39,488 nt of DNA from a virus (lineage: Duplodnaviria; Heunggongvirae; Uroviricota; Caudoviricetes). The notes under the pieces were generated by a model. The model saw only the letters and a list, made by a program, of their open reading frames with translations. It was not told the DNA's origin and ran no database searches. Shown here piece after piece: positions 1 to 39,488 of this stretch (within the stretch, counting starts at the first letter, position 1; every line of letters begins with the position of its first letter). Location: the IMG/VR virus record IMGVR_UViG_3300025644_000002; one strand, written 5' to 3'. A program made the position numbers and the translations under genes.

Positions 1-1
1 T

Positions 2-23903: not shown

Positions 23904-24197
23904 TTAAAACAATTTTGATAAAAGATGTCTATCTATAGCAAGCTTTGCTTCCCATCTTTCCAGGCGCGCATCTAATTTATTATCAAATACTTCTGCAACT
24001 TTTTCTTTAAATTCTGCAAATGTTTCTGGTTTCCATTCCTCTGCACACTTAATAAATATTTTTTCAAAATCGCTATCTGTGTCCATAGGTATATCTGCTT
24101 TCTTTTCAAAAAGGTCCATTTTTTCTATTTTATCAAAAAACTCTGCAGCTAATGCATCTTTTTCTGGGTTTCTATCATATAGAATTATTTGGGTCAT
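23904..24197 (-). CDS. Hypothetical protein
   Basis: Intact 97-aa ORF. Confidence 0.6.
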   Translation of the reverse strand: MTQIILYDRNPEKDALAAEFFDKIEKMDLFEKKADIPMDTDSDFEKIFIKCAEEWKPETFAEFKEKVAEVFDNKLDARLERWEAKLAIDRHLLSKLF

Positions 24198-24423
24198 TAT
24201 CTTTTTCCTCCATGGTGGATAAATAGTAATGTAACGTAAAACTATCTGGAATTGATTTTAGTTCCGCTATCTTAGTTAAATCTTCGTCGTATATAGTCAA
24301 AGGTTCATCCGCTAAAGTTGCAGCTTCTTCGTAGGTAAATCCTAAGTCTTCCGCAGCTTGTTTAATAAACTCTGCCATTTCAATATGTTTGTCACTTCCA
24401 GAGTGTTCTATTAATATGTACAT
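24172..24423 (-). CDS. Hypothetical protein
   Basis: Ends TGA-TAG; preceded by a near-consensus promoter. Confidence 0.6.
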
Positions 24424-24428
24424 ACTTT

Positions 24429-24457
24429 ATTATAAGTTATTTATTTAAATTAGTCAA
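24429..24457 (-). promoter_or_regulatory. Sigma70-type promoter TTGACT-N17-TATAAT, probably leaderless
   Basis: Read directly; ATG 24423 is 5 nt after the -10 box. Confidence 0.75.
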
Positions 24458-24464
24458 GTTTTTA

Positions 24465-25067
24465 CTACTTGTATCGTTTAGCTCAATTCTTCGCCATCTC
24501 TATGCGATTTGCTGCTGCACTATTTTTTTCTTTCTGTAGGAGTATAGTATTTTTCTTATCTGAAATTTTAGCTTTACTTATACTATTCTTCAGTTTATAA
24601 GCCTTAAGATTTTTTGGTATAAACTTTGCTGTTTTCTTAAGTAAAAAAGGTTGTGACGCTTTAACTGCTGCCTTATTCTGTAATTTAATAGTGGTAATAT
24701 CTGCCTTTTGTGCCTTTGTAGCTATATTTCCTGGAAGAAGTCTTTTATTTTGAGTAGCCGCAGTTACCCCTGAAAATTGTAATTGAGATTTAGTTAGGCC
24801 TTCAGCAGTTTTTATACTATTCATAAGTTCAAGATCTTGTGTTCGGTCAAATCTTCCAGCTTTTCTTTTTCGTAGATTAGTATTATTTTTGTGAATTAGA
24901 GAGTCAGCCTTTAATTCTAGTCGTGTTGGGTTTCTGTATTTCTGCCTTTTAGGATCAAGTACGTTTCACAAATTTTTAGTATTTTGTAATTTGGACTTTG
25001 TTAGAGCCTTGTTTATATGTCTTGTAGAGATTGCTAGTTTCTCAAATACTATTGTTGCTTTATCCAT
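24465..25067 (-). CDS. Basic DKA-leader protein (200 aa, 2 TGA)
   Basis: Starts MDKATIVFEKLA; TAATG-coupled to the upstream gene. Confidence 0.7.
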
Positions 25068-25675
25068 TAGGCTAATCCCACTTCATCACCATTCTTAATA
25101 GTTTTCATCATGCCTTTTACATGTCTAAGTTTCCCTTCTTGTTTTTTTCTATATAATTTATTTCCTGCAAGCTCTGTCTTCTTATCAAGTATGTTTGTTT
25201 TTGTAGCAGAACGGTCTCATACTCTACCAAGTCTTAGAATTTTTTCAGTATTCTTAGTAGTATGGTTATCGTAGTTTCTTCAATTTTTTTCTGATTGTCT
25301 AAATGCTAAGCTACGAGAATTGTCAACACTCTTATATACTCTATTAAGGCGTTTTAACCCTCTTGATCCTGCATACTTACGAAGTATTGCTGCGCCTGTA
25401 AGAGCCCCCGCCACCACCACTCCAACAGCGTTTAATACTGCTCTTCGCCTATTCTTTTTGAACTGCTGCTTACTAACTTTAGGATATGTATGGGTCGATC
25501 TATATTGCTTATCATATGCGTGTAGCTTTTTACCATGAATTTTTTTGTATTTTTCATAGCCAGCATTATAGTCGTCGTTCCATTGTTTAACAGTCATACC
25601 TTCAGGAATCAGTCCTAAACTTTCTACGGATCTACCCGCTAATTTTTCAAATACTATTGTTGCTTTATCTTTCAT
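25067..25675 (-). CDS. Basic DKA-leader protein with a hydrophobic Gly/Ala helix (202 aa, 2 TGA)
   Basis: Starts MKDKATIVFEKLA; read-through ends exactly at a TAATG junction. Confidence 0.7.
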
Positions 25676-25679
25676 ATTT

Positions 25680-26408
25680 TTATCCATATACCTTTTTAAG
25701 TAAGTTACTATCTGTTATTTTATTTTTTTTGTACTTAGACATGCGAACTGTTCATTTATCATATGTAGACTTTTCTGAAGAGGGTCTATTAAAAAAATCA
25801 TGTTTAGCCTGTCCTGATAAGGTTTTCATATGCTTTCTAGCTCTATACTTTTTTTTACTTCCCTTACTAAATATCTTGCCAAGTTCAGTGGATCTGTTTT
25901 TTGCTATATCTGGAGATAAAAAATCAATTACTTTATTTCCAGCAACATTTGAAGAGTGAAGATCTTGCACGGTTTTACCAATTATTTTTCTAGAATCTTT
26001 ACGTGCACTTCTTATAAGTTTTACGTGCTCGTCAAATGTTTTTTCACTCGGAACACTATATTGTTGGTATGTTATTTTCTTTTTTTTATCGGCTCTGTGA
26101 AACTTAGCAAAATGTGGTGATTTATTCAGTTTTTTTGAAACTTGTATTTTAGTATTAAAGGCTTTACGGCTAAACATTGGACTAGTCGTGTCATGAATTT
26201 TGGCCACTTCTACTCCATGTTTCGGAGAGGTTCTTAGTTGTACGAGCGCCTCATTGCCTCGACCAGCCTTTCTTAAAGTTCTTGGTTTCAACTGTAAGCT
26301 CTGTGAAATACGTTTTACGTTGTTAAGCGACAATGTTCCACGATTAAAGGCCCTTACTAACGCTGTTTTAGCTATTTTTTCAAATATGTAAGTTGCTTTA
26401 TCTTTCAT
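25680..26408 (-). CDS. DKA-leader protein with protein-kinase-like fold (242 aa, 1 TGA)
   Basis: AGRGNEALV (Gly loop), VAK, DLHSSN and VIDF motifs. Confidence 0.65.
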
Positions 26409-27142
26409 TAATTTGTCTCCAAAATTTTAGATTTTTTTGTAGTCCCTGGAACAAGCATCTTGCGCGCTCTTAATCCAGAATTATATTGAGCTCCTGCTGC
26501 TACCCCTCCTATAGCTCCTGCCGCTAATATTCCAGAAGATATTAAAGTTATACCTCGGTTTAACCCGTGTCTTACTGATTTCAGTATCTTTGGATTAGCT
26601 CTTGCGCTAGTAAATGTTTCCTTAATTACATCCTTAAAGTTAGTTTTTGATTTTATAGTATCCCCTCGTTTATTTTTTCATAATACCTTGCCTTTTTCTG
26701 AAGGACCTTTTGTTTTCTCTAAATCCTTTATAGACAGGTTTTTTAATGTATCCAGAATAACAGAAAAATCTTTTTTAGATACTTTAGATTTAGTTTTTAA
26801 TGCTTTATTAATTTTACTACGCGCATGAAGAGACTGCCCTAATACTTTATATGGTTTAAAAGCTTCAGAAGCTACTGCATGGGCTTTAGCCTTTATGCCG
26901 GGTCCGGCCTGTCTAGAGGCGCTTGGCCCTTTTACCATAGTAGACAACACTGCTGGAGTAATTACAGAGCTCCCTATAAAACCTCCTGCAACCGCTGTAC
27001 CCATATGCCTTTTATGATTTTCTTTATTATTAATAGCGCTTTCAAATGTCCAACGTCCGGTAGGCTCTACTCCTGCGAAAAAATCTCTGGTAGCTGAAGA
27101 GTCTTTTCCTAATTTTTCAAATATATACTGTGCTTTATCCAT
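26408..27142 (-). CDS. DKA-leader protein with Gly/Ala-rich hydrophobic segments (244 aa, 1 TGA)
   Basis: Starts MDKAQYIFEKLG; read-through at 26678 ends at a TAATG junction. Confidence 0.7.
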
Positions 27143-28425
27143 TATATTATCTTATTCTTTTTTGCAGTGGTGAACGCTTTAAAAGCAGTTGTAGCTAAAT
27201 TAGCTATCCCAGATCTAGTTCCCCCTACTGCTTGTTGCCTATAAGTTTTTAACGCCTTAACTCTAAGAGCGTCGTCTGCAGGTACTCCAGCGTTATCCCA
27301 AGCATCGATTTCCATTTTAAATCTATTTGTTTTTTCAGGCTTGCCCACAAGATTATGAAAAACATCTGTTGCTTTTCCTCTTGAATGTTTTCCTAATTTT
27401 TTTGGAGAAGTAAGACCCTTATTCTTAAAATCCGCGATATGTCCTAGTTCGTGATCTATAATTTTTTGAGAAGACCCTTTTGATCCAATTATAACTGCGG
27501 GGCCGTGTTTACCCATAGTAGCTGCCGCGTTAGGTTGCTTTAATATAATTTTATTCATTTGATGAGATATAAAACCTCCTGGTCCTCTACCTACATTTTT
27601 CTTAACTCATTTTTTAGAACTGGCTTTATCGTGAATAACGCTTACACTGTCTCCCATTTTAGAGTTTACATACCCGGGAACGTCCTTCATAAATGGTTGT
27701 TTTGCCATTTCCTTTTGAGCGGCCTTACCCGCCTTCACCTGTGAATGTACGGTTTTAAGATGGTAACCTTTCGCTCCTACGGCTAACCCTGTAGCCACGT
27801 TATCTACTTTACTTCAATTAATTTTCTTATCTATAGCTTTTACGGTAGCGGTAGCTTTTGCCACTCCTTCATTATTTTTTATATTTGTTACTCCGCTCCT
27901 GATTTTAGCTTTTAAATCCTGAACTTCTGCATATTTCTTAAATATTAATGTTACTTTATCTTGCATTGCTAATTTCTCCGTGTTTATTCCTAAATCTATT
28001 AAGTTCTTTCTAGCTGCTGGGCTTTGAGTTCTCACCCAGGTGCCGAAACTAGGAAAATCCTTTGTATTAGCTTGGTTAGCTTTTGAGGTCGCATACCAAT
28101 CAGTTACTGCTTCTAATTTATTTTTTCTTTCAGAGACCAAACCAAGTTTGTGGGCATGATGTGGGTTTCGTTTGTAGTGAAGCGCTGCTGCTTCTCTAAA
28201 TTTTCTAGTTACTTCTGGATCCTTCGTACCAGTAATACCTTTAGGGCCCTGCCAATAGGCTACATAAGGCTTCCACTCGCTTGGGCGGAACTTAGAGAGG
28301 TCATGAGCTAAAAGCGTCCCGTATGGGGCTCCTATAGTCCTGCCGGGCCTAATCATAAAGGCCTTATGCCTAAGAAGACGTTTACCATATTGATAGTGGT
28401 CTGATATAGAGGGTTTATTTTGCAC
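27142..28425 (-). CDS. Fusion of a DUF5662/HD-like domain and a HExxH metallopeptidase-like domain (427 aa, 2 TGA)
   Basis: AHDLSKF..E..HYKRNPHH..EAVTDW, then internal MQDKVTLIFKKYA, then DHELGH..EIDAW. Three track ORFs join in frame via TGA at 27814 and 27607. Confidence 0.6.
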
Positions 28426-28429
28426 TAGT

Positions 28430-28882
28430 TTACCAATTCATCTCTAATTCTGGATATTTGTCTTTTATTTTCTTTTTTAAACTAGCATCAGTAAAATTAA
28501 TTAGTTTTTCACCAAACCTTTTTTGAATGGGCATGTCTTTTGTATAATATGTTGACATATGCATATCACCGCTTTCTCCCCAATCCGGATTAGCTCTGTG
28601 AAATATAAGTTGATGGTTTTTAGTTTGTACCACCCCTTTATCTCCAATATTCATTTTAGTTTTGACTATATCTATTTCTGGTAATACTTTCTCTATTATA
28701 TCTTTTCCTTCATTCCTATTAGACGTAACTGACTTCATTCGTGTTACGCGGTCCAATTTTGGTTTAAGGCGGGTATGGCTCTTTACCTGGCTAATAACGT
28801 CATCCCAACTTTGTAACGAGGGTACTCTCGCCATTCCAAACTTATAAAAATATTTATTATATACTTGCGCAGCTTTATCCAT
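28430..28882 (-). CDS. DKA-leader hypothetical protein
   Basis: Starts MDKAAQVYNKY. Confidence 0.65.
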   Translation of the reverse strand: MDKAAQVYNKYFYKFGMARVPSLQSWDDVISQVKSHTRLKPKLDRVTRMKSVTSNRNEGKDIIEKVLPEIDIVKTKMNIGDKGVVQTKNHQLIFHRANPDWGESGDMHMSTYYTKDMPIQKRFGEKLINFTDASLKKKIKDKYPELEMNW

Positions 28883-30275
28883 CACTTCCTACTTCCTTTA
28901 ATACTTTAGTAAAATCATTTACAAGATTTTGTTTATTTTTTGATAGCAATTCTAGATACTCATCAGTTCCCGCATGTTGTCTACGTAAGAATCTAGTTTT
29001 ACGTGGCTTATTAATATATGTTTGAATCGTTATATTTCGATTTTGTTTTTTTAAATGTTCATGAGACTTGAATCTATTTACTCTACCTTTTACTTGTTTT
29101 AGAGTAGGTTCATTCCAATGAGGCTCTAATATTTGAAGAAGCCTTGTTCCTTTTAAATCAAGCCCTTCTGCTCCCGCTCCAGATATAAGTAAGTGTTTAA
29201 TCTTGCCAGAATTATATTTCTTTACTACATCAGCTTTTTCTAGGTCAGTCTGTCTTCCTGTAAAGGTGCCAAAAGGTATCTTAGTTCTCTTAAGTCTTTT
29301 GGCCATTGGGTCCACTCCGTGACCTAAGTATGTAGAGTAAGTTACTCCACGATATTTTTTATTAGCTTTATGCCTCTTAGAAATTTCTGACATCGCTCTA
29401 TTTAGTTTAGGAGCATCGGCCTCTGTAGCGCTTAAATTGTATTTGCCCGGACGATTAGATACTTGGCGTGCCGCTCCTAAGAATGCATTCATTCGAGATG
29501 ATTCTGTTTTAGAAGGAGCTATTCCATGCCTAATTTTATACTTTAAATCAGGATCTTCTTTCATAACCATTTTATAAGCTGCTTGTTGTTTTTTAGACAT
29601 TGTAGTTTCTATACGCTCATTTATAACTGAAGGATAATTTTTATCTTTAGTTGGGGCATGATAATCTACTTTGCCTCGTAGAGCTTTTCTAAGAACTCCT
29701 AAATTTTTCCCACGTTTTACCGTTCCAGGCTTAATACCCTTAAATACTCGTGCAAAAAATCCAGGTTTTTGTTTAGTCTCTTGAATAAACGCCTGGTTAA
29801 ATCTTTTTTTATCTCTACCTATATTAATATTTAAACCCCGTAAAAGCGGTATTAATTCTGCAGGTTCATTTCTAATAGGAGTTCCTGATAGAAGCAGGGT
29901 TTTCTTACCCTTTATTTTATCTGGATAGTGTGAACGTTGGGACTCTGTTCTACCCATTCTGTGGGCTTCATCGAATACAACTACGTCTTTTGAAACATTT
30001 TTTGTTGGAGGTTTATTATAAGAATAATAAGAACCTTCCCCTTTTATTTTATGCTTAAGCCTCTCTTTAGGAAAATTATGTTTTAAAGCTGCAGGGCCTA
30101 TAACTGTTACAGGTTTCTTAAACTTTTCACCTGCACGTAATGCCGTATAGGTTTTACCAGAACCTAAGCCGTGATATAACAACATTTGATCAGTCTTCTC
30201 AAGCTTCTTTAATACTCTAGCTTGGTGGGGCTGATCGGCAGCATACTTATTAAATACGTGTAGGGCTTTATCCAT
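28875..30275 (-). CDS. SF2 (SNF2/DEAH-like) helicase/ATPase with DKA leader
   Basis: GLGSGKT, DEAH, SGTP, GAEGLDL, EPHWN and QVKGRVNR motifs; starts MDKALHVFNKYA. Confidence 0.85.
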   Translation of the reverse strand: MDKALHVFNKYAADQPHQARVLKKLEKTDQMLLYHGLGSGKTYTALRAGEKFKKPVTVIGPAALKHNFPKERLKHKIKGEGSYYSYNKPPTKNVSKDVVVFDEAHRMGRTESQRSHYPDKIKGKKTLLLSGTPIRNEPAELIPLLRGLNINIGRDKKRFNQAFIQETKQKPGFFARVFKGIKPGTVKRGKNLGVLRKALRGKVDYHAPTKDKNYPSVINERIETTMSKKQQAAYKMVMKEDPDLKYKIRHGIAPSKTESSRMNAFLGAARQVSNRPGKYNLSATEADAPKLNRAMSEISKRHKANKKYRGVTYSTYLGHGVDPMAKRLKRTKIPFGTFTGRQTDLEKADVVKKYNSGKIKHLLISGAGAEGLDLKGTRLLQILEPHWNEPTLKQVKGRVNRFKSHEHLKKQNRNITIQTYINKPRKTRFLRRQHAGTDEYLELLSKNKQNLVNDFTKVLKEVGSDG

Positions 30276-30276
30276 T

Positions 30277-30999
30277 TTATTTCTTACCGTATATTGCTTT
30301 AGGTATATTAGAATTTCGGGTCATACCGCTCTCTAATAACTTACTTCCAAAATCTATAGCTTGGTACTTAATACCTTCTATAGCTGCAGCTGGTTTTTTC
30401 TTTAAAGACAGAGCCTTCCACACTTCACTCTTAACCGCTTTTTTAAATCCCTCAGTCTGTTTCCCGACAGTGGTTGTTTGTAGAGCTTTGCGCCCCCTTC
30501 TACCTGCGGGAAGGAAGTCAATTATTTTTCCACCCTGAATGTTTCCTGGGTTTCTAACTACGTCGGCCATAGGTACACCTCTCAGTGTAGCTTGTGCCTT
30601 TGTTAGAAGAGTTTGTTTTATAGAGCTCCCAATTCCGGCAGTTCCTGGACTATACTCGTGGAAAGTGATGGGTCGTTTAGGATCTTTTCCATAATACTTG
30701 GCAAAATTGCCTTTGCCTGACATTGTTTTAAAAGTACGAACTTTTTCTTTTAATACCTCTTTACTCGAAAGCCCTCCCTTAGGGTCATAGAGTTTAGCAA
30801 CTTGAAGTTGGTGTTTTGCGGAAGTCCTTAACTGTGCCAACCCTTCAACTCCCTGGCCCAAATCTTTTAAATATCTAGACTTAAGTCCTAAAGTTTGAGT
30901 AGCTTTTCCCGCTGCTTCTGCAGAGATCTTTCTAGCCTTAACCGCTCTTATCATCGCAGTTGAAGCTCATTTTTCAAATATGTATTGTGCTTTATTCAT
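30277..30999 (-). CDS. DKA-leader kinase-like protein, paralog of 25680-26408 (240 aa, 1 TGA)
   Basis: MNKAQYIFEK*AS; LGQGVEG, VAK, DVVRNPGN and KIIDF motifs. Confidence 0.65.
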
Positions 31000-31541
31000 T
31001 ATGCTGTTCCTTTTATAAATGTGTGATATCTGTTAATTGCGCCTTTTACTGTAGGAGCTGTATTAAAGGCTCGATGAGTATTAGTTACATATATAGTTCT
31101 ACCATCAGGTTGTACCGATTTCCATACAGCCGGAGTTGCTTGGCGTTTGCCATCTCTACCAAAATGAAAATTCCAAACTGCTTTGCTTTTCATCACTAAC
31201 GCGCGCTCTTCTGGAGTTAGAGGTTTTTTATGTTTTTGAAGTTTCTTAAACTTGATTTTACAAGAGGTATATTTAGCATACTTCTCAAATACCTGAGCTA
31301 CCTTCTTAAAAGAGGTTAAGATCCCATTATAACCTTCCCTAGTAACGTTAGGGAGGGGTTTCCTAGTAAACACTTCTCTACTCATAAATGGTATAGATTT
31401 ATTAGCTATTAAGGCTCTATATTTAGCTTTGTTCTTTCGTCCCTGCAAAAAGATATTGTCTCATCCAGCTTTTTGTTGAATGAGGGTTGGATCGAATCCT
31501 CGATCTATCTTAAATTTTGGTACTGGAAAGAATTTAGGCAT
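30999..31541 (-). CDS. Basic hypothetical protein with internal KVAQVFEKYA motif (180 aa, 1 TGA)
   Basis: Track ORF extends to ATG 31541 through one TGA. Confidence 0.6.
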
Positions 31542-31756
31542 TGACTATTTTTGAGAAAATGTATTCTGCTTTTTTGTATAACTGAGCATAATCTTTATAT
31601 TTCTTTCCAGGATTTGCTTTTTTTTCATTTAGCAAAATTTGCAATTGCGTTGGGTCCGTAGAGACCTCTCATTACATTAAAACCCTTTTTACCCTCAATC
31701 ATGTGAGTCAGATGTTTTACTTCGGTAACTAAGTCTTTTACTGCTTGTTTTTTCAT
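31534..31756 (-). CDS. Small protein with an apparent frameshift at an A8 run
   Basis: Frame 1 stops at 31595. The shifted frame continues KKANPGKKYKDYAQLYKKAEYIFSKIVNA, which contains the family motif. Confidence 0.45.
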
Positions 31757-31774
31757 TTAATTATTTCCCACTCT

Positions 31775-33814
31775 TTAAGATGCGTAGTCTATATCATTAA
31801 TTAATCTAGACGTTGTTAAAGCCTCTGGTACATATTTTTTTAGCTGTTTACTGGTAAGATCTTGACCGCCTCTTAATCCTTTAACTTTCAAATATTTTCG
31901 CTGAGCTTTATCGCTCCCTACGGCAGCTGCTATCATTGTTCCAAACGCTGCACCCGCTACAGCTCCTACTGCAACATTTTTTCCTAAACCTTTCATTTTT
32001 CTTAATACTGAAAGCGGTTCTGGGTTTACAGCTCAATAATTACTAGGAGGATTTTTACCTAACCATTTTGTACCTGATCAAGCTCCTAATGCTGCTCCGA
32101 CCCCCGTTGTTTTAGGTATTGTGGCAGTCCTATATTGTTTACTTCTTTCCTTTTTTGAGCTCGCCGAATACTCTGGAGCGTTTTCTTTATTCCATTTGCC
32201 AGAAGGACTTTCCTGTAAGGCTCTAGCATGCGCTCGCGCTTGTAGCTCTTCTCTTATTCTAGACAACTCTAGATCATGTGCTAAATCTATATAAGGATAC
32301 TTTTTACCTAATTTACTCATTACAGCTTCTGCTTTTTTATTTAAAGACATAGCTCCGCCTACTAAGGTAGCTGCTGCTGTAGGAGTTCCTACTACTGTTC
32401 CTACTACTTTAGCTGTTTCGATTTTAATCTCTTTTTCTACATTTTTTAATAGTTCCGTATACTTAGGATGATCCTTATGAAGTTTAGAGGTCACAGTTTT
32501 TAATTTATTTATATAATCTGCTTTACTTTGTTTAAGGCCCTTTAGACGGCTACCTTTTACTAGTTCCAAATATCTAGCAGATACCGATCCAGTTTTACTA
32601 GCGCGCCCTATCCCTATTCCTGCGAGAGTTGTTCCTGCGCCAAACCCTAGAAGTTTAGCATTTAAACTTATTCCTTTCTTTGCCGCAGGTTGCTCAGTTT
32701 TTGCCGGAGCAGTTGAAGTTGTAGCCTTTGTAGATTTTGTAGATTTCGAAGTAGTTGAAGCTGCTGACGCTTTCGAAGATTTCGAAGTATTCGCAGCGGT
32801 TCCTTTACCTCCAGAAGAGGTCCATCGGGCATCTACGGGTGCCAGACTTTTATTTTTCACTACTCTTTTTGAAGTTCCTTTAACAACCGCATCTGAGGTT
32901 GCTTTCGCTTCCTGGGCAATTGTTATGGCCTTTAATTTTAATGCCTTCGCATTAATTGCAACTTTTAAAAATACATATTCCGCTTTTTTATCTATAACTG
33001 CGTCTGCTAATACAGCTGCTGCGCCTGTACCCGCCGCACCTCGTGTAGCGTATACTTTTACAATTTCTTTACCAGCCTCGTTAGCGTCAAGCTCTTTCCC
33101 GCTCTTTTTAGCTGCATCTATCTTAGACTTCATCTTATTGCCAGAAAATAACTCTTTAGTTCTTTTTAATACCTTCTGCCCTGTCTCAGCCACGCTTGCA
33201 GCAGTCGGTCCTGCAGTTTTATTAAATAATAGTTCTGCTTTAGAAAACTCTCCTTGTTTCTTCATATTTGTACTCCTATGGTATCCTATGCCAGAACCTA
33301 TAGCACTTCCTGCTAATAACGCGGCTGCTGGTACTTTGAATGTTTTAAATTTTGTTAAGGTGCCTTTTATTTTATTAGTAAATAATTGAAAAGCTTTTGA
33401 TGGTAAATCTGGTTGTTTTATAAAATTTTTAGCTAACTGCTTTTGATTTTTTAAATAGGCCTTTGTAACATCGCTTATGTCGTTGAATGTTTTTCCTTTT
33501 AAATCTTCTATGTTTTTTTTATTACTTGCAAAAAATTGTCTAGTAAACAGTGCCGCCCCAGGTAAAGACCCTAACATAGACCCAGTAAGGGCTGCTTGAG
33601 CTGCTTGCACCTTTCTCCCTTCCGGAGCTAATGACGCCGCTGCTGCACTTTGTAAGGGCGCGCCAGGCACCAACGTAGAAATAGCACTTGATGCTCCTAC
33701 TAAAGAGGCGTTCATAAGTTTTCTAAATTTAGTACGCCTTTTTGGTTGTGGAATCGACGGGACTGCTGAGGCTCCTAACCCTACTACAGTTCCTAATGGT
33801 GATTGAATATCCAT
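31775..33814 (-). CDS. Large basic Gly/Ala-rich protein with three internal KAE..F.K motifs, polyprotein/ejection-protein-like (679 aa, 2 TGA)
   Basis: SKAELLFNKTA, KKAEYVFLKVA and KKAEAVMSKLG. Joins ORF 31775-31996 in frame via TGA. Confidence 0.65.
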
Positions 33815-33822
33815 TTTAACTC

Positions 33823-34167
33823 CTATTTATATTTTTTGTCTAGATAGTCTTTAGTAACTCCGTAGGTACCAAATCCTATAGCTAACGTTGGAATGTTACG
33901 TAACAATTTTAATCCTAAACCTTTATACAAAGATTTAAAAGCCTTTAATTTACCTATTGGTTTCGTAAGTTTAGGAGGTTTATTAAAGTCAACATTTTGA
34001 GAGGGAGGAGCCGTCTGACGACGAACTTGTAGGGTATCTAAGGGGTGAAGCAATAAACTGGTAACAGTCCCAGATAATGCTCCTGGGGCTAAATCTAATA
34101 ATAGACGATTAGGTTTACGTTTATTACGCTCAGCGTATTTCATAAACACGTGTTGTGCTTTATCCAT
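33823..34167 (-). CDS. Single-repeat mitochondrial-carrier (Solcar/SLC25)-like membrane protein with DKA leader (114 aa)
   Basis: GALSGTVTSLLLHPLDTLQVRRQ and SLYKGLGLKLLRNIPTLAIGFGTYGVTKDYL match both halves of one carrier repeat; starts MDKAQHVFMKYA. Confidence 0.75.
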   Translation of the reverse strand: MDKAQHVFMKYAERNKRKPNRLLLDLAPGALSGTVTSLLLHPLDTLQVRRQTAPPSQNVDFNKPPKLTKPIGKLKAFKSLYKGLGLKLLRNIPTLAIGFGTYGVTKDYLDKKYK

Positions 34168-34207
34168 GTATTTTATGTCCTTAAAAATAATTATCAATTG
34201 ATATCTC

Positions 34208-34236
34208 AATATAAGTGTTACGAATTTATTTGTAAA
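34208..34236 (-). promoter_or_regulatory. Sigma70-type promoter TTTACA-N17-TATATT heading the late module
   Basis: Read directly; same TATATT-xAGAT-A context as the promoter at 14094. Confidence 0.6.
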
Positions 34237-34263: not shown

Positions 34264-34273
34264 GGTATAAGAA
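34264..34273 (+). promoter_or_regulatory. GGTATAAGAA motif, copy 1 of 5 (putative early promoter)
   Basis: Intergenic, upstream of a plus-strand gene. Confidence 0.6.
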
Positions 34274-34301
34274 CTATGTAATAACTAAGGAGATCTATAT
34301 T

Positions 34302-34496
34302 ATGGTATGGTCTACTGGGGTTCAGTGTCCCTACAAACATCAATACGAATTGGCGGCTTGGGCTCAGAAACGCTGGCCTAATGATCCGCCTTCAAAGTAT
34401 GCTAAAATGACTTACAAACGGTTGTATGCTATATGGTGTGCTGCTCATGCAGAAACCGGAATATGGCAATTAGCTAAAAAAGGAGAAACCTTATGA
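34302..34496 (+). CDS. Small hypothetical protein (TGA used as stop)
   Basis: AAGGAG SD, five TGG Trp codons, ends in an ATGA overlap with the next gene. Confidence 0.7.
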   Translation: MVWSTGVQCPYKHQYELAAWAQKRWPNDPPSKYAKMTYKRLYAIWCAAHAETGIWQLAKKGETL

Positions 34497-34669
34497 GCCT
34501 ATGGCCATTTAATTTGAAAGAGTGGATTTTTGGTCCAGACGAAGATCCAGATCCGGACGGACCCTGTATACATGGGTTTCATCCTGATGAAGTTAAAAAT
34601 ATTAAAGAAGACCCCCGCTGTCATTATTGCGGAAAAACCCTCTCAGAACTTGCCGAAACCACTAAGTAA
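34493..34669 (+). CDS. Small Cys/His protein (58 aa; CIHG..CHYC)
   Basis: MSLWPFNLKEWIFGPDEDPDPDGPCIHGF..RCHYCGK, with an upstream AAGGAG. Confidence 0.6.
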   Translation: MSLWPFNLKEWIFGPDEDPDPDGPCIHGFHPDEVKNIKEDPRCHYCGKTLSELAETTK

Positions 34670-34793
34670 CCTACCCACGCTGTCAAAAAGAGAGGTCCAT
34701 TTGGCCTTTCTTTTTATCTCCAAAATTATATACTAAGCGACATATTTCCTTTTGTAATAAGCGCAGCGCGGCTCCGAAATTTTTCAGTATTTG

Positions 34794-34803
34794 GGTATAA
34801 GAA
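34794..34803 (+). promoter_or_regulatory. GGTATAAGAA motif, copy 2 (upstream of the tRNA)
   Basis: Exact copy. Confidence 0.6.
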
Positions 34804-34861
34804 CAGTATGAAGTAGCTTATACTTTCAGAACGAATTTTTTTAACTTAAGACTAAATTAAT

Positions 34862-34933
34862 AGGGGCGTAGTTCAATTGGTAGAGCTCCGGTCTCCAAAA
34901 CCGGCAATGCGGGTTCGAGTCCTGCCGTCCCTG
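34862..34933 (+). tRNA. trnW: tRNA-Trp, anticodon CCA (34895-34897); 3' CCA not encoded
   Basis: Full cloverleaf: AGGGGCG/CGTCCCT acceptor stem, CCGGT-CTCCAAA-ACCGG anticodon arm, GCGGG-TTCGAGT-CCTGC T arm. Confidence 0.97.
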
Positions 34934-34955
34934 CACCTAACAATGGAGAGCACAT

Positions 34956-35171
34956 ATGGCTAAAGATTATCGAATTAAGAGAAATATAATATGGACAGCA
35001 ACCTTTATAATAATAATGATCGGAATGGTTTTTTATAAAAATGACGAAAGACGTCCTACTAAATCACAACAAGCTATTGATGCTTGTATAGCTCAGGGAG
35101 GAGTTCCAACAATAGATGGCTGGCATAATACCATGAAAGATTGTGTATTTCCTCCAGAAAACAACAGATAA
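34956..35171 (+). CDS. Small membrane protein
   Basis: GGAG SD and an N-terminal hydrophobic helix (IIWTATFIIIMIGMVFY). Confidence 0.7.
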   Translation: MAKDYRIKRNIIWTATFIIIMIGMVFYKNDERRPTKSQQAIDACIAQGGVPTIDGWHNTMKDCVFPPENNR

Positions 35172-35182
35172 CCAAAACAAAC

Positions 35183-35428
35183 ATGAGTAAAGAAACCTCA
35201 ACGAAACCTATAGAAGTACGATTGCCCGGGACTTTTATGGATAGATATCTAAAGAAGGGCATGGAAACTTTTATTTTTGGCCAGCCCATTAAGGACATGA
35301 ATAAAGAACAACTTATAGCCACCGTAGGGTGTGTTATAGGAAAAATGGAAAGGGATGCTACATCCGCTCAAGAACATATTACATTTTTAAACGATATTAG
35401 TGCAATTAGAAGGGGCCAGAAGTGGTAA
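35183..35428 (+). CDS. Hypothetical protein
   Basis: Probable start at MSKETS; TAATG junction to the next gene. Confidence 0.6.
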   Translation: MSKETSTKPIEVRLPGTFMDRYLKKGMETFIFGQPIKDMNKEQLIATVGCVIGKMERDATSAQEHITFLNDISAIRRGQKW

Positions 35429-35700
35429 TGAAAGGAACAATAGTTAAGTTAAGACTTCCTATGTTGGGAAACGATACTGGAACTAAGGGTATTTGTTATG
35501 ACATTCAACAGCTAGGTGGTCAAGACCCTCTTTATTTCTATATTTTTGCTAACGGTAATTATGATGGATTTGATAAAGAAGAACGGGAAGAATATTTAGA
35601 AAATGTATGTATGTCTGATATTGACTACGAGTTTACACACGTAATGCAATTAGGGAGGGATTTCTATGGCGGGTGTTTTGCAAGCGTTTGGGAGAGCTAA
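35428..35700 (+). CDS. Hypothetical protein
   Basis: TAATG-coupled ORF. Confidence 0.65.
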   Translation: MKGTIVKLRLPMLGNDTGTKGICYDIQQLGGQDPLYFYIFANGNYDGFDKEEREEYLENVCMSDIDYEFTHVMQLGRDFYGGCFASVWES

Positions 35701-36247
35701 TCGTTCGCCTCAAGATGTGACAGATGAATTATATAACTACCACGCAAGAGAACGCAAAAAAACCAAAAGACTCCCCTTCAAAGAATTTCGACATCAGAAA
35801 CCTGAAGGTGTAATTAGCTCCAGAAATCGAAAATATTATGGAATTAACTACGCCAAGGGGCTTCGAAAACCTTATTATAAACCCATGTCTCAATTCTCCG
35901 AAGAAGATATTGAAGCTACAAAATTAAAGGGATGGTATTGTCTTTGCTGTAAAAGCTGGCATCCCGAATTTCACGAAGCTTGTTGGTGGTGTACCCCCTC
36001 ACACCAACGATATGAAAACAGACATTTAGCCTTTTCACTAATGGTCACCGAACGACATAAAATTCAACGTGAATTAACCATGGCTATGGAAGACCCTTTC
36101 ACTGACGACAACTCTCTTAGGAGAATGGGCGTTGGAGCATCTTCTGATTTTGTAATAGCTAGCGGAGTAAAAGATGACCTTGCTTGGCTTGGAAATCTAT
36201 CTGACTCTTCAACGGGAAGCGCATTATCGCCACCAATAATCACTTAA
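35666..36247 (+). CDS. Hypothetical protein with Cys-rich motif (start uncertain)
   Basis: CLCCKSWH..CWWC motif. Confidence 0.6.
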   Translation: MAGVLQAFGRANRSPQDVTDELYNYHARERKKTKRLPFKEFRHQKPEGVISSRNRKYYGINYAKGLRKPYYKPMSQFSEEDIEATKLKGWYCLCCKSWHPEFHEACWWCTPSHQRYENRHLAFSLMVTERHKIQRELTMAMEDPFTDDNSLRRMGVGASSDFVIASGVKDDLAWLGNLSDSSTGSALSPPIIT

Positions 36248-36251
36248 ACTA

Positions 36252-36524
36252 ATGACAAGAAAAGAACACAACGGCTTCACTATAGTAGTGGACCGTCCAC
36301 CTACAATTTATCGCCCATATATGATAGTATATTCTACCAGATCTCGCGCGCTCCTTCCAAACTTATGCGGGGAAAGCAAGCATTACTATGGAGAAAAAGA
36401 TATAATTAGTAAAGTAATGTCCGAACTTGATAATAAAGATATAACAATAGAGAGAAAAAAACGAGACTCAGTTATAGAGGATGCTATGTTAACTAAAGAT
36501 TTAAAAGTATACAGCAAAAACTAA
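36252..36524 (+). CDS. Hypothetical protein
   Basis: Intact ORF in a co-directional series. Confidence 0.6.
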   Translation: MTRKEHNGFTIVVDRPPTIYRPYMIVYSTRSRALLPNLCGESKHYYGEKDIISKVMSELDNKDITIERKKRDSVIEDAMLTKDLKVYSKN

Positions 36525-36596
36525 ACCCTTAACTCCCCTCCAATTATTCTTCAGAATGTAGTATTATTGGGGGGTTAATATAATGAATGGATTATA

Positions 36597-36863
36597 ATGA
36601 ATACCATATTAATTAAATTAAAAGAATTATTTAAAACTAAAGCAAGAATCATTAAACGTACAGGTCCCGGCCCTAGCACATCTTGGGTTATCCAGCAACC
36701 TCATCACTTATTTAGATGGTGGTGGTGTGATGCTTGGCTCAATAGTTCTAGCGGCGCTAACTGTACCGATAGTTTTGGTACCTTAGAAGAGGCTCAAAAG
36801 AACTTATGCTACTTCGACGGAACTAAATGTACTGAAACCATAGTACTTCAAACAGGAAAATAA
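36597..36863 (+). CDS. Hypothetical protein
   Basis: Intact ORF; five TGG codons. Confidence 0.6.
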   Translation: MNTILIKLKELFKTKARIIKRTGPGPSTSWVIQQPHHLFRWWWCDAWLNSSSGANCTDSFGTLEEAQKNLCYFDGTKCTETIVLQTGK

Positions 36864-36864
36864 A

Positions 36865-37134
36865 ATGTCACAACTACTATTAGAAAACAAAGAATTAAGA
36901 GAACTTCTTTGGATTAATCATGGCCACGACTTTCATGCCCTATACGGAGATGACGGTGAGATGCAATGCGCTGAGTGCCACGTTGACTTTAAACGGCACT
37001 CTCCAGAGCTAATTACCCAAATATGGAAAACTAACTATAACCGAAAACTTAATCAAAAAAAAGAAAATGACACCAGCAATACACCGAATGCAGGAAGCAA
37101 CCAGCCAACAACTCTCGTTAATTCGCAGGATTGA
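36865..37134 (+). CDS. Hypothetical protein (WINHGH..LYGDDGEMQC..C)
   Basis: Intact ORF ending in TGA. Confidence 0.6.
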   Translation: MSQLLLENKELRELLWINHGHDFHALYGDDGEMQCAECHVDFKRHSPELITQIWKTNYNRKLNQKKENDTSNTPNAGSNQPTTLVNSQD

Positions 37135-37276
37135 AGCTAAAGCAGACTTCGCATTCTTCAGTGGAGACTCTATAGAAGACGCTAGTGAATTTATTAATAC
37201 TAATAAACGGCTTGATGCTGTCATATTAAAAAGAAGTAGATTCCCTAGATTCATAGAAGAATCCGACAAGAAATAA
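37067..37276 (+). CDS. Hypothetical protein
   Basis: ORF overlaps the 3' end of the previous gene. Confidence 0.5.
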   Translation: MTPAIHRMQEATSQQLSLIRRIEAKADFAFFSGDSIEDASEFINTNKRLDAVILKRSRFPRFIEESDKK

Positions 37277-37301
37277 CGTAATTAAAATTGCAATGAAATA
37301 G

Positions 37302-37311
37302 GGTATAAGAA
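37302..37311 (+). promoter_or_regulatory. GGTATAAGAA motif, copy 3
   Basis: Exact copy, intergenic. Confidence 0.6.
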
Positions 37312-37319
37312 GTATACGC

Positions 37320-37592
37320 AAGCGATAATAATTACGATAATTTTGTAGCGACAGTCCTTGGGAATTTTGAGGACCTAGCTACCATGATACACCCGGCTGT
37401 TTACCTTACCAGTGTAAATAAGGCCATTCCTTTCGTTTTGGTTGTTTAACAAAGCTCCACGGCTAACTGGTACCACTTAGACTTTGTTATGTAAAGTCAG
37501 GACCTTCAGCGCCACACCGAAAAGCTGAACGCAATTTAAGCCATGCGGCCCCCGTGATTTGTCTCAATTTGAGGACGGGGGCTTCCTTTTTT
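37320..37592 (+). ncRNA. Candidate structured small RNA or leader ending in an intrinsic terminator
   Basis: No long ORF. Stems GTCCT/AGGAC, TTTAC/GTAAA, GACTTT/AAAGTC, TTCAGC/GCTGAA, then GCCCCCGT/ACGGGGGC plus a T run. Confidence 0.4.
37548..37592 (+). terminator. Intrinsic terminator
   Basis: GCCCCCGT..ACGGGGGC-TTCCTTTTTT. Confidence 0.7.
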
Positions 37593-37618
37593 AATTAATT
37601 AATAAATCACATAAATAT

Positions 37619-38116
37619 ATGAAACCCAGTAAACCAATAAAAACGGCTTCTTCTAGAAAAAGAAACGTAAGTTTACAAGACAGAATAGCTAGGGCTAAAG
37701 CTAAGCAGGCTGCTAATAGAAAGAGAAAAGCTTCTCTAAAAAAAATACAACCTATAGTTGCCCCAGAAGAAATTAATCCATTATTTATAGTCAACAAGCA
37801 TGCCTATGAGTACAATCACGCTTTGATGGCCGAACTGTCTGAAGAAGATTTTAATATAGCCGAGGGTGGTAAGTTAGCCGCAGTCGTTGATGGAGTATGC
37901 AGAGGCGTAGGAACTTGGATGACTTTTCCTCCAACAGGTGATAAGGTTTTCTTAGTCACTTTATATTCTCATGAAGAATTTGGAGAACTCGAGTACTCCT
38001 TTATTTATAAGAATGAAGGCGACCTTACTCATGAGTTAACGGAAACTCTACCTTTAGATAAAGCAAACATGGTTATTGGATCACCATTTGAACCATTTCA
38101 ATTTACAGCAAAATAG
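37619..38116 (+). CDS. Hypothetical protein with basic N-terminus
   Basis: Intact 165-aa ORF. Confidence 0.65.
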   Translation: MKPSKPIKTASSRKRNVSLQDRIARAKAKQAANRKRKASLKKIQPIVAPEEINPLFIVNKHAYEYNHALMAELSEEDFNIAEGGKLAAVVDGVCRGVGTWMTFPPTGDKVFLVTLYSHEEFGELEYSFIYKNEGDLTHELTETLPLDKANMVIGSPFEPFQFTAK

Positions 38117-38520
38117 GTCTAATAGAGAGACCTTAATGCAGGAGAGGCCGCTCCTATGGCGTCATAGAGAGGGGTTAATGTGGACTGCTGGGCATTCTTG
38201 ACAGAATGTCTTCTCTAATATTAGTAACGTAGGCACTCTGCACGGAGAAAGCTAAGCTAATATAAAACACGAGCCGTTGGCGGCAAACCTACTCTACGGT
38301 AGGGGCCAACAAAAATGCGGGATACGGGCGGTGATTTTGTCATCACACGACCCTCTCTCGCACAAATTTAAACATGGGACGCAGCGAGGACTCAGCCGGC
38401 TTATGGTAATTATACCCCCGACAACACAGTCTGAGAGTGACCTGGCCGTCCCAGGAGATTGCCCGAGGTGTGGGCGGTGGCGATACTGTTTGCAGATGGG
38501 TTATCGTGTAAGGCAATAGC
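38115..38520 (+). ncRNA. Candidate ~400-nt structured ncRNA
   Basis: GC-richer intergenic region with many complementary stems (see findings). Confidence 0.4.
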
Positions 38521-38556
38521 AATTTTTAACAACAAACTTATGAGGAGCAATTAACT

Positions 38557-38856
38557 ATGGATATGGTGAAAGACTTTCACTATAAAGGATATGATTTTGT
38601 AATCACAGTACGGCTGGGATATAGACGAGAAAAGCACATCGGTGGGAAAGTCTGGCATGAGATCACAGCTATATGCTTACAAAATTCAGAATATAAATAT
38701 CGACAAGAGGTGCTTGATGCCTGGCTCGAACGCGGCGTCGCCGCTGCTGACCAAACCATTCACGCTTTTGTAGATGTTTTGGTGGAGCTTCTACCTGAAG
38801 CTAATTATGTAGCTCCAGAAAAGGATCAACGCCTTTTAGCGCTAGGATTTGAATAA
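38557..38856 (+). CDS. Hypothetical protein
   Basis: GAGGAG SD; intact ORF. Confidence 0.65.
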   Translation: MDMVKDFHYKGYDFVITVRLGYRREKHIGGKVWHEITAICLQNSEYKYRQEVLDAWLERGVAAADQTIHAFVDVLVELLPEANYVAPEKDQRLLALGFE

Positions 38857-38874
38857 ACAGAAAGGAGTGTATTT

Positions 38875-39087
38875 ATGATACGCAAAAAAATTACATTAAC
38901 AGTTGAAGAACGTGTAGATGCACTAATTAAGCACAATGGAAAATTAAAGGTATCTGGCGGAAGTCCTGGCGGCCCTGGCCACACTTTTGCAGAGATGGAA
39001 GACTTTCATGAAGAAAAAAATATGAGAGACTCCTATATCACAGTACCTAGACGCTTTGTAAAAATTACGAGGTCTGGCAATTTTTAG
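38875..39087 (+). CDS. Hypothetical protein
   Basis: AAGGAG SD; intact ORF. Confidence 0.65.
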   Translation: MIRKKITLTVEERVDALIKHNGKLKVSGGSPGGPGHTFAEMEDFHEEKNMRDSYITVPRRFVKITRSGNF

Positions 39088-39097
39088 GGTATAAGAA
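39088..39097 (+). promoter_or_regulatory. GGTATAAGAA motif, copy 4
   Basis: Exact copy. Confidence 0.55.
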
Positions 39098-39214
39098 TAA
39101 CGATGACAAGTAGCAATTAAAAATTACTTAATTTTAACTAGGAGCTATCATGAAGAATTAGATCTCACATAGAGAACCCATACATATTTGAAAAAATCTC
39201 CAGGAATGCGATTG

Positions 39215-39252
39215 AAAAAGGGAGTGTGTGAAAGCACATTTCCCTTTTTTTT
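39215..39252 (+). terminator. Intrinsic (possibly bidirectional) terminator
   Basis: AAAAAGGGAGTGTGT-GAAA-GCACATTTCCC followed by a T run. Confidence 0.75.
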
Positions 39253-39274
39253 ATCTTAAATATTAATAAAATGG

Positions 39275-39284
39275 GGTATAAGAA
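39275..39284 (+). promoter_or_regulatory. GGTATAAGAA motif, copy 5
   Basis: Exact copy, just after a terminator. Confidence 0.6.
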
Positions 39285-39327
39285 TGATAGTGTATCGATT
39301 AAATTAATTAAAATAAAGGAAGAAACA

Positions 39328-39488
39328 ATGTATACACCACAGACGTCCGTAGAGGTGTGCTTTAAAATGGGCTTACCTGAAGGACATGAGTTTACTATAG
39401 GAAGTCTAACCACTAACATCGTCCCTAGAATAGGTGAACGAATCTACCTTACCGGTGTTATTGAGTTACATATACCTGATTCACTTAA
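39328..39488 (+). CDS. Hypothetical protein, truncated by window edge
   Basis: AAGGA SD; MYTPQTSVEVCFKMG.. open to the end of the window. Confidence 0.5.
   Translation, partial: MYTPQTSVEVCFKMGLPEGHEFTIGSLTTNIVPRIGERIYLTGVIELHIPDSL

Follow-up and report, generated by a model that had tools for sequence, protein, structure and literature searches.

For the TGA-recoded gut phages of the Agate and Jade clades a temporal code-switch model has been proposed (Borges et al., bioRxiv 10.1101/2021.08.26.457843). Blocks of different codes have been annotated with Mgcod in the genomes of crAss-like phages (Pfennig et al., bioRxiv 10.1101/2022.06.29.495998), and Zeta crAss-like phages contain both Sup-TCA and Sup-CTA tRNAs (PMC12386605). 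In-frame TGA also specifies an amino acid in phages of code 25 hosts (Gracilibacteria/Absconditabacteria) and of code 4 Mollicutes, in which TGA is found in about 90% of the genes (bioRxiv 10.1101/2021.08.26.457843). The window considered here, a stretch of 39,488 nucleotides, probably spans the divergent junction in the genome, about 210 kb long, of an uncultured marine phage with two readings of TGA. Its two-code genome is real but of an already described kind, and the published model fits. The first-pass annotation had seen a match to the proposed temporal regulation of recoded phages, and the same layout is indeed described by Borges et al. and by Mgcod.

As in the Agate and Jade phages, TGA encoding Trp is concentrated in structural genes, replication genes and presumed early genes are compatible with the standard code, and there are a phage tRNA(UCA), close standard-code relatives and a predicted standard-code host; unlike the gut phages, this phage is marine. 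With the crAss-like phages it shares a block-wise genome in which the code switch is a switch of the coding strand, early functions being written in code 11 and late functions recoded, and the presence of both opal and amber suppressor tRNAs. It differs from them in belonging to an unrelated lineage of about 210 kb with a GpA-type terminase and its own RNAP beta/beta', and TAG is not systematically recoded. Unlike in the phages of code 25 and code 4 hosts, more than half of the genome is free of in-frame TGA, and TGA aligns to W, never to G.

The partition of the Trp codons is evident within the window. Its 14 small plus-strand genes (34302-39488, +) comprise 1326 codons, among which TGG occurs 27 times and TGA never; the 26 TGG and no internal TGA counted in the first-pass annotation are reproduced when the weak ORF 38277-38519, which has a negative coding score, is omitted. 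TGA is not depleted as a trinucleotide, with 70 out-of-frame occurrences in these genes. Read in code 4, the minus-strand genes of the window contain 69 TGA and 59 TGG among 11269 codons, which agrees with the dozens of TGA-Trp codons previously ascribed to the opposite strand. The two sets differ with p = 2.8e-8 (Fisher exact test, 27 TGG/0 TGA vs 59 TGG/69 TGA), and the probability of 0 TGA in 27 Trp codons at the TGA share of 0.54 in the late module is 8e-10. Base composition does not explain the split, since the two gene sets favor A over G at third positions to the same degree (0.76 vs 0.78). The change of code at the divergent junction (34209/34302) coincides with the change of coding strand. 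Read with TGA as Trp, the late or virion module (5795..34209, -) contains 64 TGA and 56 TGG, among them 23 TGA in a gene for a 1970-aa protein (5795-11707, -), three in the large terminase (20125-21663, -) and one each in the head protease (16818-18539, -) and bS21 (21648-21875, -). The genes for the major capsid protein (14177-15100, -) and a helicase (28875-30275, -) have none.

Alignments indicate that TGA is read as Trp in the late-strand genes. The terminase TGA codons 208, 238 and 384 correspond to W in 75, 89 and 78, respectively, of 89 homologs, and the remaining residues are mostly Y, F or H. TGA 242 of GDP-mannose dehydratase (GMD) falls on the invariant W of the YVEAMW motif in the solved structures 5uzh and 1n7g. 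None of G, S and C occurs in the W columns that hold TGA. Coding density is markedly higher with TGA as a sense codon, 94.2% (code 4) vs 82.9% (code 11) in the 164-kb record, and thereby places the phage among the recoded phages as defined by the published gain of about 10%.

On the plus strand, by contrast, TGA serves as a stop. Gene A (34302..34496, +), which encodes a 64-aa ORFan with five TGG codons and has a coding score of +15.0, ends with TTA TGA, the stop being TGA 34494-34496. It matched no Pfam or PHROG family, and a search of the 35-112-residue length band among 5.8 billion proteins returned no homolog but itself. The overlap with the next ORF noted in the first-pass annotation is present: the ATG of gene B, which encodes a 58-aa Cys-rich ORFan (34493..34669, +), lies at 34493 within an ATGA and is preceded by AGGAG 7 nt upstream. 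Inspection of the sequence places a hairpin with a T-run 3' of gene B (~34688-34716, +). Translation continuing past the TGA of gene A would reach a second TGA after seven codons and then proceed across gene B and the hairpin with its T-run. This frame had been called implausible, and a codon model trained on the other genes of the arm supports that judgment, assigning scores of -12.3 to -13.8 to the read-through frame vs +15.8 to the frame of gene B. The coding potential changes frame at TGA 34494 and passes to gene B. As a check on circularity, only TAA and TAG were admitted as stops; the block was then altered just at the TGA of gene A, at that of gene 36865-37134, which ends TGA AGC TAA, and at one TGA upstream of a start.

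The plus block (34264-39488, +) opens an arm of about 90 kb, of which it makes up the first 5 kb; the arm contains small ORFans, NAD-salvage and further metabolic genes and some 30 tRNA genes. Gene content, a promoter-like motif and the analogy with known phages suggest that this is the early arm. In its 150 ORFs all 382 Trp codons are TGG and no TGA is in frame; 102 ORFs end in TAA, 32 in TAG and 16 in TGA (10.7%). Seven of the 16 TGA stops, that of gene A and six more, overlap the start of the next gene by 4 nt. The apparent use of TGA as a stop in the plus block holds for gene A and extends to 16 of 150 arm genes, and the sequences show that TGA is a true stop of the early arm where it is present.

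The functional split continues through the genome. Mapping of TGA and TGG per gene, with functions assigned by PHROG and Pfam, revealed no TGA in DNA pol A, class II RNR, primase-helicase, helicase, sigma factor and CCA-adding enzyme, whereas two to nine TGA codons each are found in the baseplate J, tail, GT2/GT11/GT25, asparagine synthase-like and GMD genes. In-frame TGA is also present in the terminase, protease and RNAP beta/beta' genes. Early or replication genes with similar rates of in-frame TGA, which would have spoken against the first-pass reading, were not encountered. That reading, in which early genes can be read with the standard code and structural genes are locked, is supported at the level of sequence, but the lock is incomplete, as the capsid genes, the helicase and the lysis unit are free of TGA. 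Further genes without TGA on the late side are the rest of the capsid gene cluster and a portal-like gene. Two parts depart from the layout: a glycosyltransferase sub-block lies on the "standard" strand, and the TGA-free holin-endolysin unit on the "recoded" strand.

Candidate promoters of an early class recur in the plus block. A GGTATAAGAAC box occupies 34264..34274 (+), 28 nt upstream of gene A, and a second lies at 34794..34804 (+), upstream of a tRNA-Trp gene. Further motif matches are box 3, GGTATAAGAAG, from 37302 in the unit 37302..37600 (+), and boxes 4 and 5, GGTATAAGAAT, at 39088 and 39275 (39088..39285, +), which are separated by a terminator-like hairpin (39220-39253, +). With one mismatch allowed, the 212-kb composite has 19 copies of GGTATAAGAA on the early strand and none on the opposite strand; five of them are in the block of the window. 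A sigma-70 promoter scan of the block gave no enrichment over shuffles. TATAAATA was rejected as a strand-specific motif (27 vs 32 copies on the two strands), as was a difference in Shine-Dalgarno sequences between the gene classes (50% vs 36%, both far over the 10% background). Contigs from metatranscriptome RNA libraries (two runs of one study) begin at 34294/34300, 34819, 37341 and 39301, which is 15-29 nt past four of the five GGTATAAGAA boxes, at most a weak hint, given no weight as evidence in view of the fact that contigs show neither transcript starts nor strand. Word depth in the RNA libraries is higher in the plus block than in 33000-34300 and flat in DNA runs; contigs give no level, and DNA carry-over is possible.

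The tRNA-Trp(CCA) gene (34862..34934, +; ARAGORN; Rfam tRNA 62.3 bits) reads TGG only. A UGA-reading tRNA-Trp of the Hirsh type was rejected, as the U11-G24 pair is retained. The gene predates recoding because standard-code relatives carry one too. It is followed by eight small ORFan genes of 69-193 aa (34956..37276, +) with coding scores of +13 to +37, in which Trp is always TGG; apart from ORF 37067-37276, seven of these eight were queried and matched no Pfam or PHROG family. The stretch of about 280 nt that follows box 3, up to 37600 (+), contains no ORF of at least 60 aa and ends in a strong hairpin and a T-run, and is a candidate small RNA; the unit 37313-37600 matched nothing in Rfam, and its fold z-score was just -0.98. 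Three to four small TGA-free genes of 70-165 aa follow (37619..39087, +), among which ORF 38277-38519 is doubtful, and none has a significant Pfam family. The start of a 121-aa gene (39271..39488, +; score +26.9) is within the window, and its TGA stop, in an ATGA context, lies past the window end. The queried plus-strand proteins had no PHROG match at a cut-off of 0.001 and no Pfam match over the curated cut-off, and relatives in four related genomes were found for 3 of 13 block proteins.

A tRNA(UCA), RF1/RF2 homologs and TrpRS had been named as factors to be sought. The tRNA(UCA), 97 nt long, was found in the same phage about 97 kb downstream, inside the TGA-free holin-endolysin unit (contig L009, 16697-16793, -). 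It was reached by a walk along near-identical contigs of other samples; its contig is 100% identical to the walk over an overlap of 10.9 kb, and the walk agrees at 99.99% with the record of the window. In the 164-kb record itself ARAGORN and Infernal detected no UCA anticodon. Additional Infernal matches were rejected as suppressor tRNAs, being look-alikes with a tetraloop in the anticodon arm or having an AUU anticodon. The tRNA(UCA) combines a long type-II-like extra arm, a 6-bp D stem and a 7-pair acceptor stem with an acceptor end (A1/G1-U72, G73) and an anticodon arm like those of tRNA-Trp. A tRNA of the same type occurs in the recoded relatives G001 and G004, and 11 of 28 pairs are compensatory. 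Its charging with Trp is probable from the conserved W positions and the Trp-like acceptor end and anticodon arm. No match to PF00472 or PF00579, that is, to RF1/RF2 or TrpRS, was found in G000, G001 and G004, and the Pfam matches of the genes called along the 48-kb walk included none.

The complete relatives G001 and G004 display the same strand-wise partition, as in a 36-gene block with 0 TGA and 114 TGG. The relatives G002 and G003 use the standard code and possess tRNA-Trp(CCA) without tRNA(UCA). In the standard-code sister phages 20-24% of the ORFs end in TGA; together with the working TGA stops this points to a standard-code host. In the terminase tree of the clade at least five changes of the recoding trait are seen. 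When species genomes were scanned for the terminase, four MAG contigs were obtained (Saprospiraceae, Bacteroidales, Dojkabacteria and Desulfatibacillum), which were set aside as host evidence since they are probably mis-binned phage DNA.

It is unlikely, yet deserves the most attention among the alternatives, that dose and not timing governs the partition, TGA being a weak Trp codon contested by RF2 that is purged wherever translation is fast or abundant, whatever the time of expression. The abundant virion genes (14177-15100, 15116-16816 and 18547-20072) have 0 TGA and 8 TGG while large tail proteins have up to 23 TGA, the lysis unit lacks TGA, and neither an RF1 gene nor any other function directed against RF2 was detected. 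However, the roughly 150 genes of the early arm probably differ widely in product abundance, and the complete lack of TGA among their 382 Trp codons is more absolute than tuning by itself would produce; in addition, the TGA stops and ATGA couplings of the early arm require efficient termination during translation. Dose is compatible with timing, and both may hold. Very little probability is given to another residue at the late-gene TGA codons, be it Ser or Sec inserted by the long-armed tRNA or Gly as in code 25. The type-II-like extra arm, G73 and the 6-bp D stem are in its favor, as is an Rfam tRNA-Sec score of 48.5, which is 1.5 bits over the threshold of 47 bits. The TGA codons, however, fall on invariant or aromatic-only W columns, never on G, S or C; a tRNA-Sec would combine an 8-bp acceptor stem, as in bacteria, and a 5-bp T stem with TGA at Cys/Sec positions, and here the acceptor stem has seven pairs, the columns are W, and the acceptor end and anticodon arm resemble those of tRNA-Trp. 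SECIS-dependent reading is impossible at about 300 TGA codons per genome.

Timing is also preferred over a code 4 host in which the whole phage would be read in code 4 and the plus arm would avoid TGA for an unrelated reason, an explanation that is very improbable. Within the window only gene A strictly needs TGA as a stop, and the 10.7% TGA stops of the early arm are below the 20-24% of the standard-code relatives. Against it stand the frame switch at the ATGA of genes A and B, the six further TGA stops that overlap the next start, the standard code of the sister phages and the phage's own tRNA(UCA), which such a host would supply. The samples are, moreover, open-ocean metagenomes, and the open ocean is not known to harbor an abundant code 4 host. 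Where 10.1101/2022.06.29.495998 deals with code 4 genomes, TGA accounts for 80-90% of their Trp codons, in contrast to 0 of 382 in the early arm. A junction of two phages of different code created during assembly has a negligible probability. The window and the 164-kb record disagree over the first 299 bases of the window, so that the assemblies are not all identical, but the junction and both arms recur in independent assemblies of several studies, DNA contigs span 34242-34883, and the complete relatives G001 and G004 have the same two-code layout.

In the model based on timing, the early arm and the replication genes would be written for a standard-code cell, in which Trp is TGG and TGA is absent or a stop, and the plus-strand arm would be expressed first, from the strand-specific GGTATAAGAA boxes. 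The virion, tail, RNAP and glycosyltransferase genes would yield full-length products only once the phage tRNA(UCA), presumably charged by the host TrpRS, is present. The code partition would thus serve timing, and the TGA-free capsid genes suggest that it additionally keeps down the cost of a codon that is decoded inefficiently. The lock is leaky, since the capsid cluster, the portal-like gene and the lysis genes are free of TGA. The RNAP beta/beta' genes need TGA decoding, and therefore the order of events is not simple.

Several features distinguish this arrangement from those described. Unlike the Jade phages, this phage lacks the "code-change module" of RF1 and TrpRS beside the suppressor tRNA. 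Its tRNA(UCA), which has a long extra arm, lies in a TGA-free lysis cassette, whereas the lysis genes of the Agate and Jade phages are preferentially recoded, and TGA is still a common early-arm stop. Unlike in crAss-like phages, the suppressor lies within a TGA-free sub-unit instead of at the 5' end of the block on the recoded strand. We tentatively propose that the switch of the marine clade is wired differently from that of the gut phages: a Trp-like, long-armed tRNA(UCA) would be produced from a TGA-free holin-endolysin operon, TGA would remain a stop and coupling signal in about one tenth of the early genes, within one infected cell a single codon would have two required meanings, each at its own time, and the lysis genes, far from being the main target of the lock, would escape it.

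A single-code annotation of this phage is incorrect for one or the other half of the genome. The case is unusually clean in that 382 Trp codons of the early arm include no TGA and working TGA stops exist in the same arm. The phage may be useful for testing how a suppressor tRNA by itself, with neither an RF nor a synthetase gene, can alter the code of the cell during infection. Block-wise TGA recoding, so far known mainly from gut phages, is extended to an abundant open-ocean clade of about 210 kb.

In the window the tryptophan codons are divided by strand. In the 14 plus-strand genes (1326 codons) all 27 Trp codons are TGG, and TGA does not occur in frame; once the doubtful ORF 38277-38519 is dropped, the TGG count is 26, which is the number given by the first-pass annotation. 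The minus-strand genes contain 69 TGA and 59 TGG, in keeping with the TGA-rich opposite-strand module described there, and the contrast between the strands is significant (p = 2.8e-8, Fisher's exact test). TGA is not missing as a trinucleotide from the plus-strand genes, since 70 occur there out of frame, and composition does not explain the contrast because codons ending in A make up nearly equal fractions of the A/G-ending codons of the two gene sets (0.76 and 0.78). When TGA is counted as Trp, 1.1% of the codons in the late module, i.e. the opposite-strand genes, encode Trp, versus 0.5% with TGG alone. About 54% of the Trp codons in the recoded module outside the capsid cluster are TGA, and the genes for the major head protein and the proteins encoded beside it (14177-16816 and 18547-20072, minus strand) have 0 TGA and 8 TGG, which suggests that the late genes with the highest expression shun TGA.

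Calling the plus-strand genes under code 11, in which TGA is a stop, bars internal TGA by construction, and for this reason two ORF maps were compared, one with TGA as a stop and the other with only TAA and TAG. With TAA and TAG as the sole stops, only three places in the plus-strand block change. The gene at 34302-34496 ends in TTA TGA, and the ATG of a 58-aa ORF (34493-34669) overlaps this stop at 34493, with AGGAG 7 nt upstream and a hairpin and T-run behind the ORF. The ATGA overlap and the implausible read-through claimed earlier for this site were both recovered: a codon model trained on the other genes of the arm, the ~90-kb plus-strand run that opens at 34.3 kb, scored the overlapping ORF at +15.8 and the read-through frame at -12.3 to -13.8, from which it follows that the TGA at 34494-34496 behaves as a stop. 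A second place is the end of gene 36865-37134, TGA AGC TAA. Over the whole arm, 150 code 11 ORFs contain 382 TGG and no internal TGA; they stop at TAA (102), TAG (32) or TGA (16), and seven of the 16 TGA stops overlap the start of the next gene by 4 nt.

In the recoded genes the alignments show that TGA is read as Trp. The positions of the three TGA codons in the terminase gene are occupied by W in 75, 89 and 78 of the 89 full-length homologs, with Y, F or H in most of the others. Glycine, as in code 25, and selenocysteine were considered as alternative meanings and rejected, as G, S or C never occurs in these columns. GDP-mannose dehydratase, encoded elsewhere in the genome, served as an independent check; its TGA 242 aligns with the tryptophan of YVEAMW in enzymes of solved structure whose source organisms use the standard code.

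The window corresponds to positions 52706-92193, read on the reverse strand, of a 163,945-bp IMG/VR virus record with a CheckV completeness of 77%. Positions 300-39488 are identical to the record and bases 1-299 differ from it at 197 positions; the mismatch lies inside a GC-rich repetitive ORF (1-5419, minus strand) that is open-ended, ~1800 aa long, open in several frames and 51-54% GC versus ~36% for the genome. The minus strand from 5.8 to 34.2 kb is fragmented under code 11 and forms a tight array of long genes under code 4, in which TGA is Trp. PHROG/Pfam matches on this strand identify the large terminase (20125-21663), the head protease (16818-18539), the major head protein (14177-15100) and a helicase (28875-30275). 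The gene for a ribosomal protein bS21 (21648-21875, minus strand; Pfam E = 1.1e-11), which has one in-frame TGA, overlaps the start of the terminase gene. The first late-strand gene at the divergent junction (33823-34209, minus strand) is TGA-free and encodes a single-repeat mitochondrial-carrier-like protein of 128 aa (Pfam Mito_carr E = 1.7e-14). From 34302 on, the genes are small and lie on the plus strand, and those queried had no family match in PHROG and Pfam.

TGA and TGG were tabulated per ORF across the 164-kb record, which was extended by an outward walk along two marine contigs, one of 138,951 bp (99.99% identity to the record over 11.5 kb) and one of 210,268 bp (100% identity over a 10.9-kb overlap with the walk); the resulting 212-kb working composite served for counting only. 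Replication genes with TGA at similar rates, which the first-pass annotation had named as evidence against two codes, were not found. DNA polymerase A, a sigma-70-like factor, class II ribonucleotide reductase, an AEP primase-helicase, a CCA-adding-type enzyme and a helicase lie on a second standard-code stretch with 0 TGA. TGA occurs in the virion and tail genes (e.g. Baseplate_J), in RNAP beta/beta' and PhoH, in a tail-spike island and in clustered glycosyltransferase and sugar-nucleotide genes. The arm also contains NAD-salvage genes, a retron-type RT, a tmRNA-like gene (L006 19421-19792, plus strand; tag peptide GRPAVKLAA) and ~30 tRNA genes, among them an amber suppressor with anticodon CUA (L006 11220-11296, plus strand); both L006 genes lie in the TGA-free arm, and a CUA tRNA also occurs in the relatives G003 (standard-code) and G001 (recoded). 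Four tRNA-like genes lie on the minus strand of the record (3603-3674, 3680-3749, 8566-8633 and 33590-33661, record coordinates): three lack an anticodon, the arm closing in a tetraloop, and the fourth, missed by ARAGORN, scores 58.7 bits as a tRNA, but its anticodon is AUU and its acceptor stem is weak.

Of the switch components that the first-pass annotation had proposed to look for, a tRNA(UCA) was found. The record, the gene calls of the walked region and the complete recoded relatives G001 and G004 yielded no RF-1 domain and no class Ib synthetase domain. The tRNA(UCA) (L009 16697-16793, minus strand; 97 nt, loop CUUCAAA, CCA end encoded) starts six bases past the upstream stop and is located between a holin and a 76-aa gene on one side and an Amidase_2 endolysin on the other. 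Nine genes, the first for the holin and the last for a 621-aa protein, form the unit around it; they contain 1 TGA and 19 TGG, and the genes just upstream of the unit are TGA-rich. The anticodon arm and acceptor end (U72, G73) of the tRNA are Trp-like, its D stem has 6 bp, its extra arm is long, and its score against the Rfam tRNA-Sec model is 48.5 bits (threshold 47). As the acceptor stem has seven pairs, this tRNA is not read as tRNA-Sec. The window's tRNA-Trp is not a UGA reader, since its anticodon is CCA and it keeps the U11-G24 pair of the wild type; a tRNA-Trp(CCA) is present in the standard-code relatives as well.

A terminase profile search yielded 77 related viral contigs, and four complete genomes (204-210 kb) were read from end to end. 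Two of these, G002 and G003, use the standard code: neither code gives a higher coding density than the other, the structural blocks have almost no TGA, 24% and 20% of the ORFs, respectively, end in TGA, and tRNA(UCA) was found in neither complete genome. The other two, G001 and G004, are recoded and divide their Trp codons by strand as the window's phage does (e.g. 36 genes with 0 TGA and 114 TGG). The long-armed tRNA(UCA) with its 6-bp D stem, G73 and encoded CCA is common to the three recoded phages (G001 76160-76256; G004 65786-65883), always in the same nearly TGA-free unit with the order holin, tRNA, amidase, actin-like gene and ~620-aa protein, and 11 of 28 pairs are changed on both sides yet still paired. 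Among the 71 contigs long enough to judge, ~20 appear TGA-recoded around the terminase and 42 appear standard-code. On a terminase tree of 74 rows, in which the window's phage pairs with recoded G001 beside a standard-code clade, the recoded/standard label needs seven changes and well-supported branches force at least five, the label being taken from ~20 kb of DNA around the terminase of each contig and a single-gene tree being able to mislead.

The plus-strand block is presumably early. The box GGTATAAGAA(C/T/G) resembles an extended -10 element and is a candidate promoter. With one mismatch allowed, it occurs 19 times on the arm strand and not at all on the other strand of the composite; the chance expectation for its 9-base core is ~2 exact copies per strand. 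The first 35 kb of the arm contain 13 of the copies, several copies lie directly behind a T-run terminator, and five (34264, 34794, 37302, 39088 and 39275, plus strand) split the block into short units. Marine metagenomes from several studies contain the phage sequence, as do two metatranscriptome runs, both from the same study. Metatranscriptome contigs, which cannot show transcript starts, strand or level, begin 15-29 nt past four of the five boxes, which is taken only as a weak hint. The stretch 37302-37600 (plus strand) consists, in this order, of a GGTATAAGAAG box, ~280 nt in which no ORF reaches 60 aa, and a strong hairpin with a T-run. This unit, within which an RNA-library contig spans 37341-37588, had no Rfam match and a fold z-score of -0.98; it may be a small RNA or micro-peptide unit.

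TGA- and TAG-recoded phages with standard-code hosts are known; their recoding is concentrated in structural and lysis genes, the replication genes being standard-code, and suppressor tRNAs, close relatives with differing codes and a temporal-switch model have been described (Borges et al., bioRxiv 10.1101/2021.08.26.457843). Also on record are phage genomes built of code 11 and code 4 blocks, in which the code changes where the coding strand does and early and late functions occupy different blocks (Pfennig et al., bioRxiv 10.1101/2022.06.29.495998), and a large-phage survey found the same association with suppressor tRNAs (PMC13037316). The match to the temporal-regulation model that had been suggested for this DNA agrees with the first two studies. 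The published cases describe the same pattern, and the two-code finding is a correct reading of an already known phenomenon. The two-code observation on this phage is confirmed, and its interpretation as standard-code early genes and recoded late genes is supported at the level of sequence; the timing of expression, a standard code in the host and the charging of tRNA(UCA) we infer. The phage differs from the described cases in several respects: it is marine, it lacks RF and synthetase genes, its tRNA(UCA) is unusually shaped and sits inside a lysis unit nearly without TGA, it retains TGA as a stop in about one-tenth of the early genes, and its capsid cluster is TGA-free. The last of these suggests that UGA is still a costly codon even late in infection. 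The recoded strand carries the genes for the phage RNAP beta' (1026 aa) and beta (598 aa) and a PhoH gene split by TGA (L007 12590-19342, minus strand); under code 4 these frames fuse into longer ones with 5 TGA. If this RNAP is needed for late transcription, the polymerase itself would depend on the suppressor.
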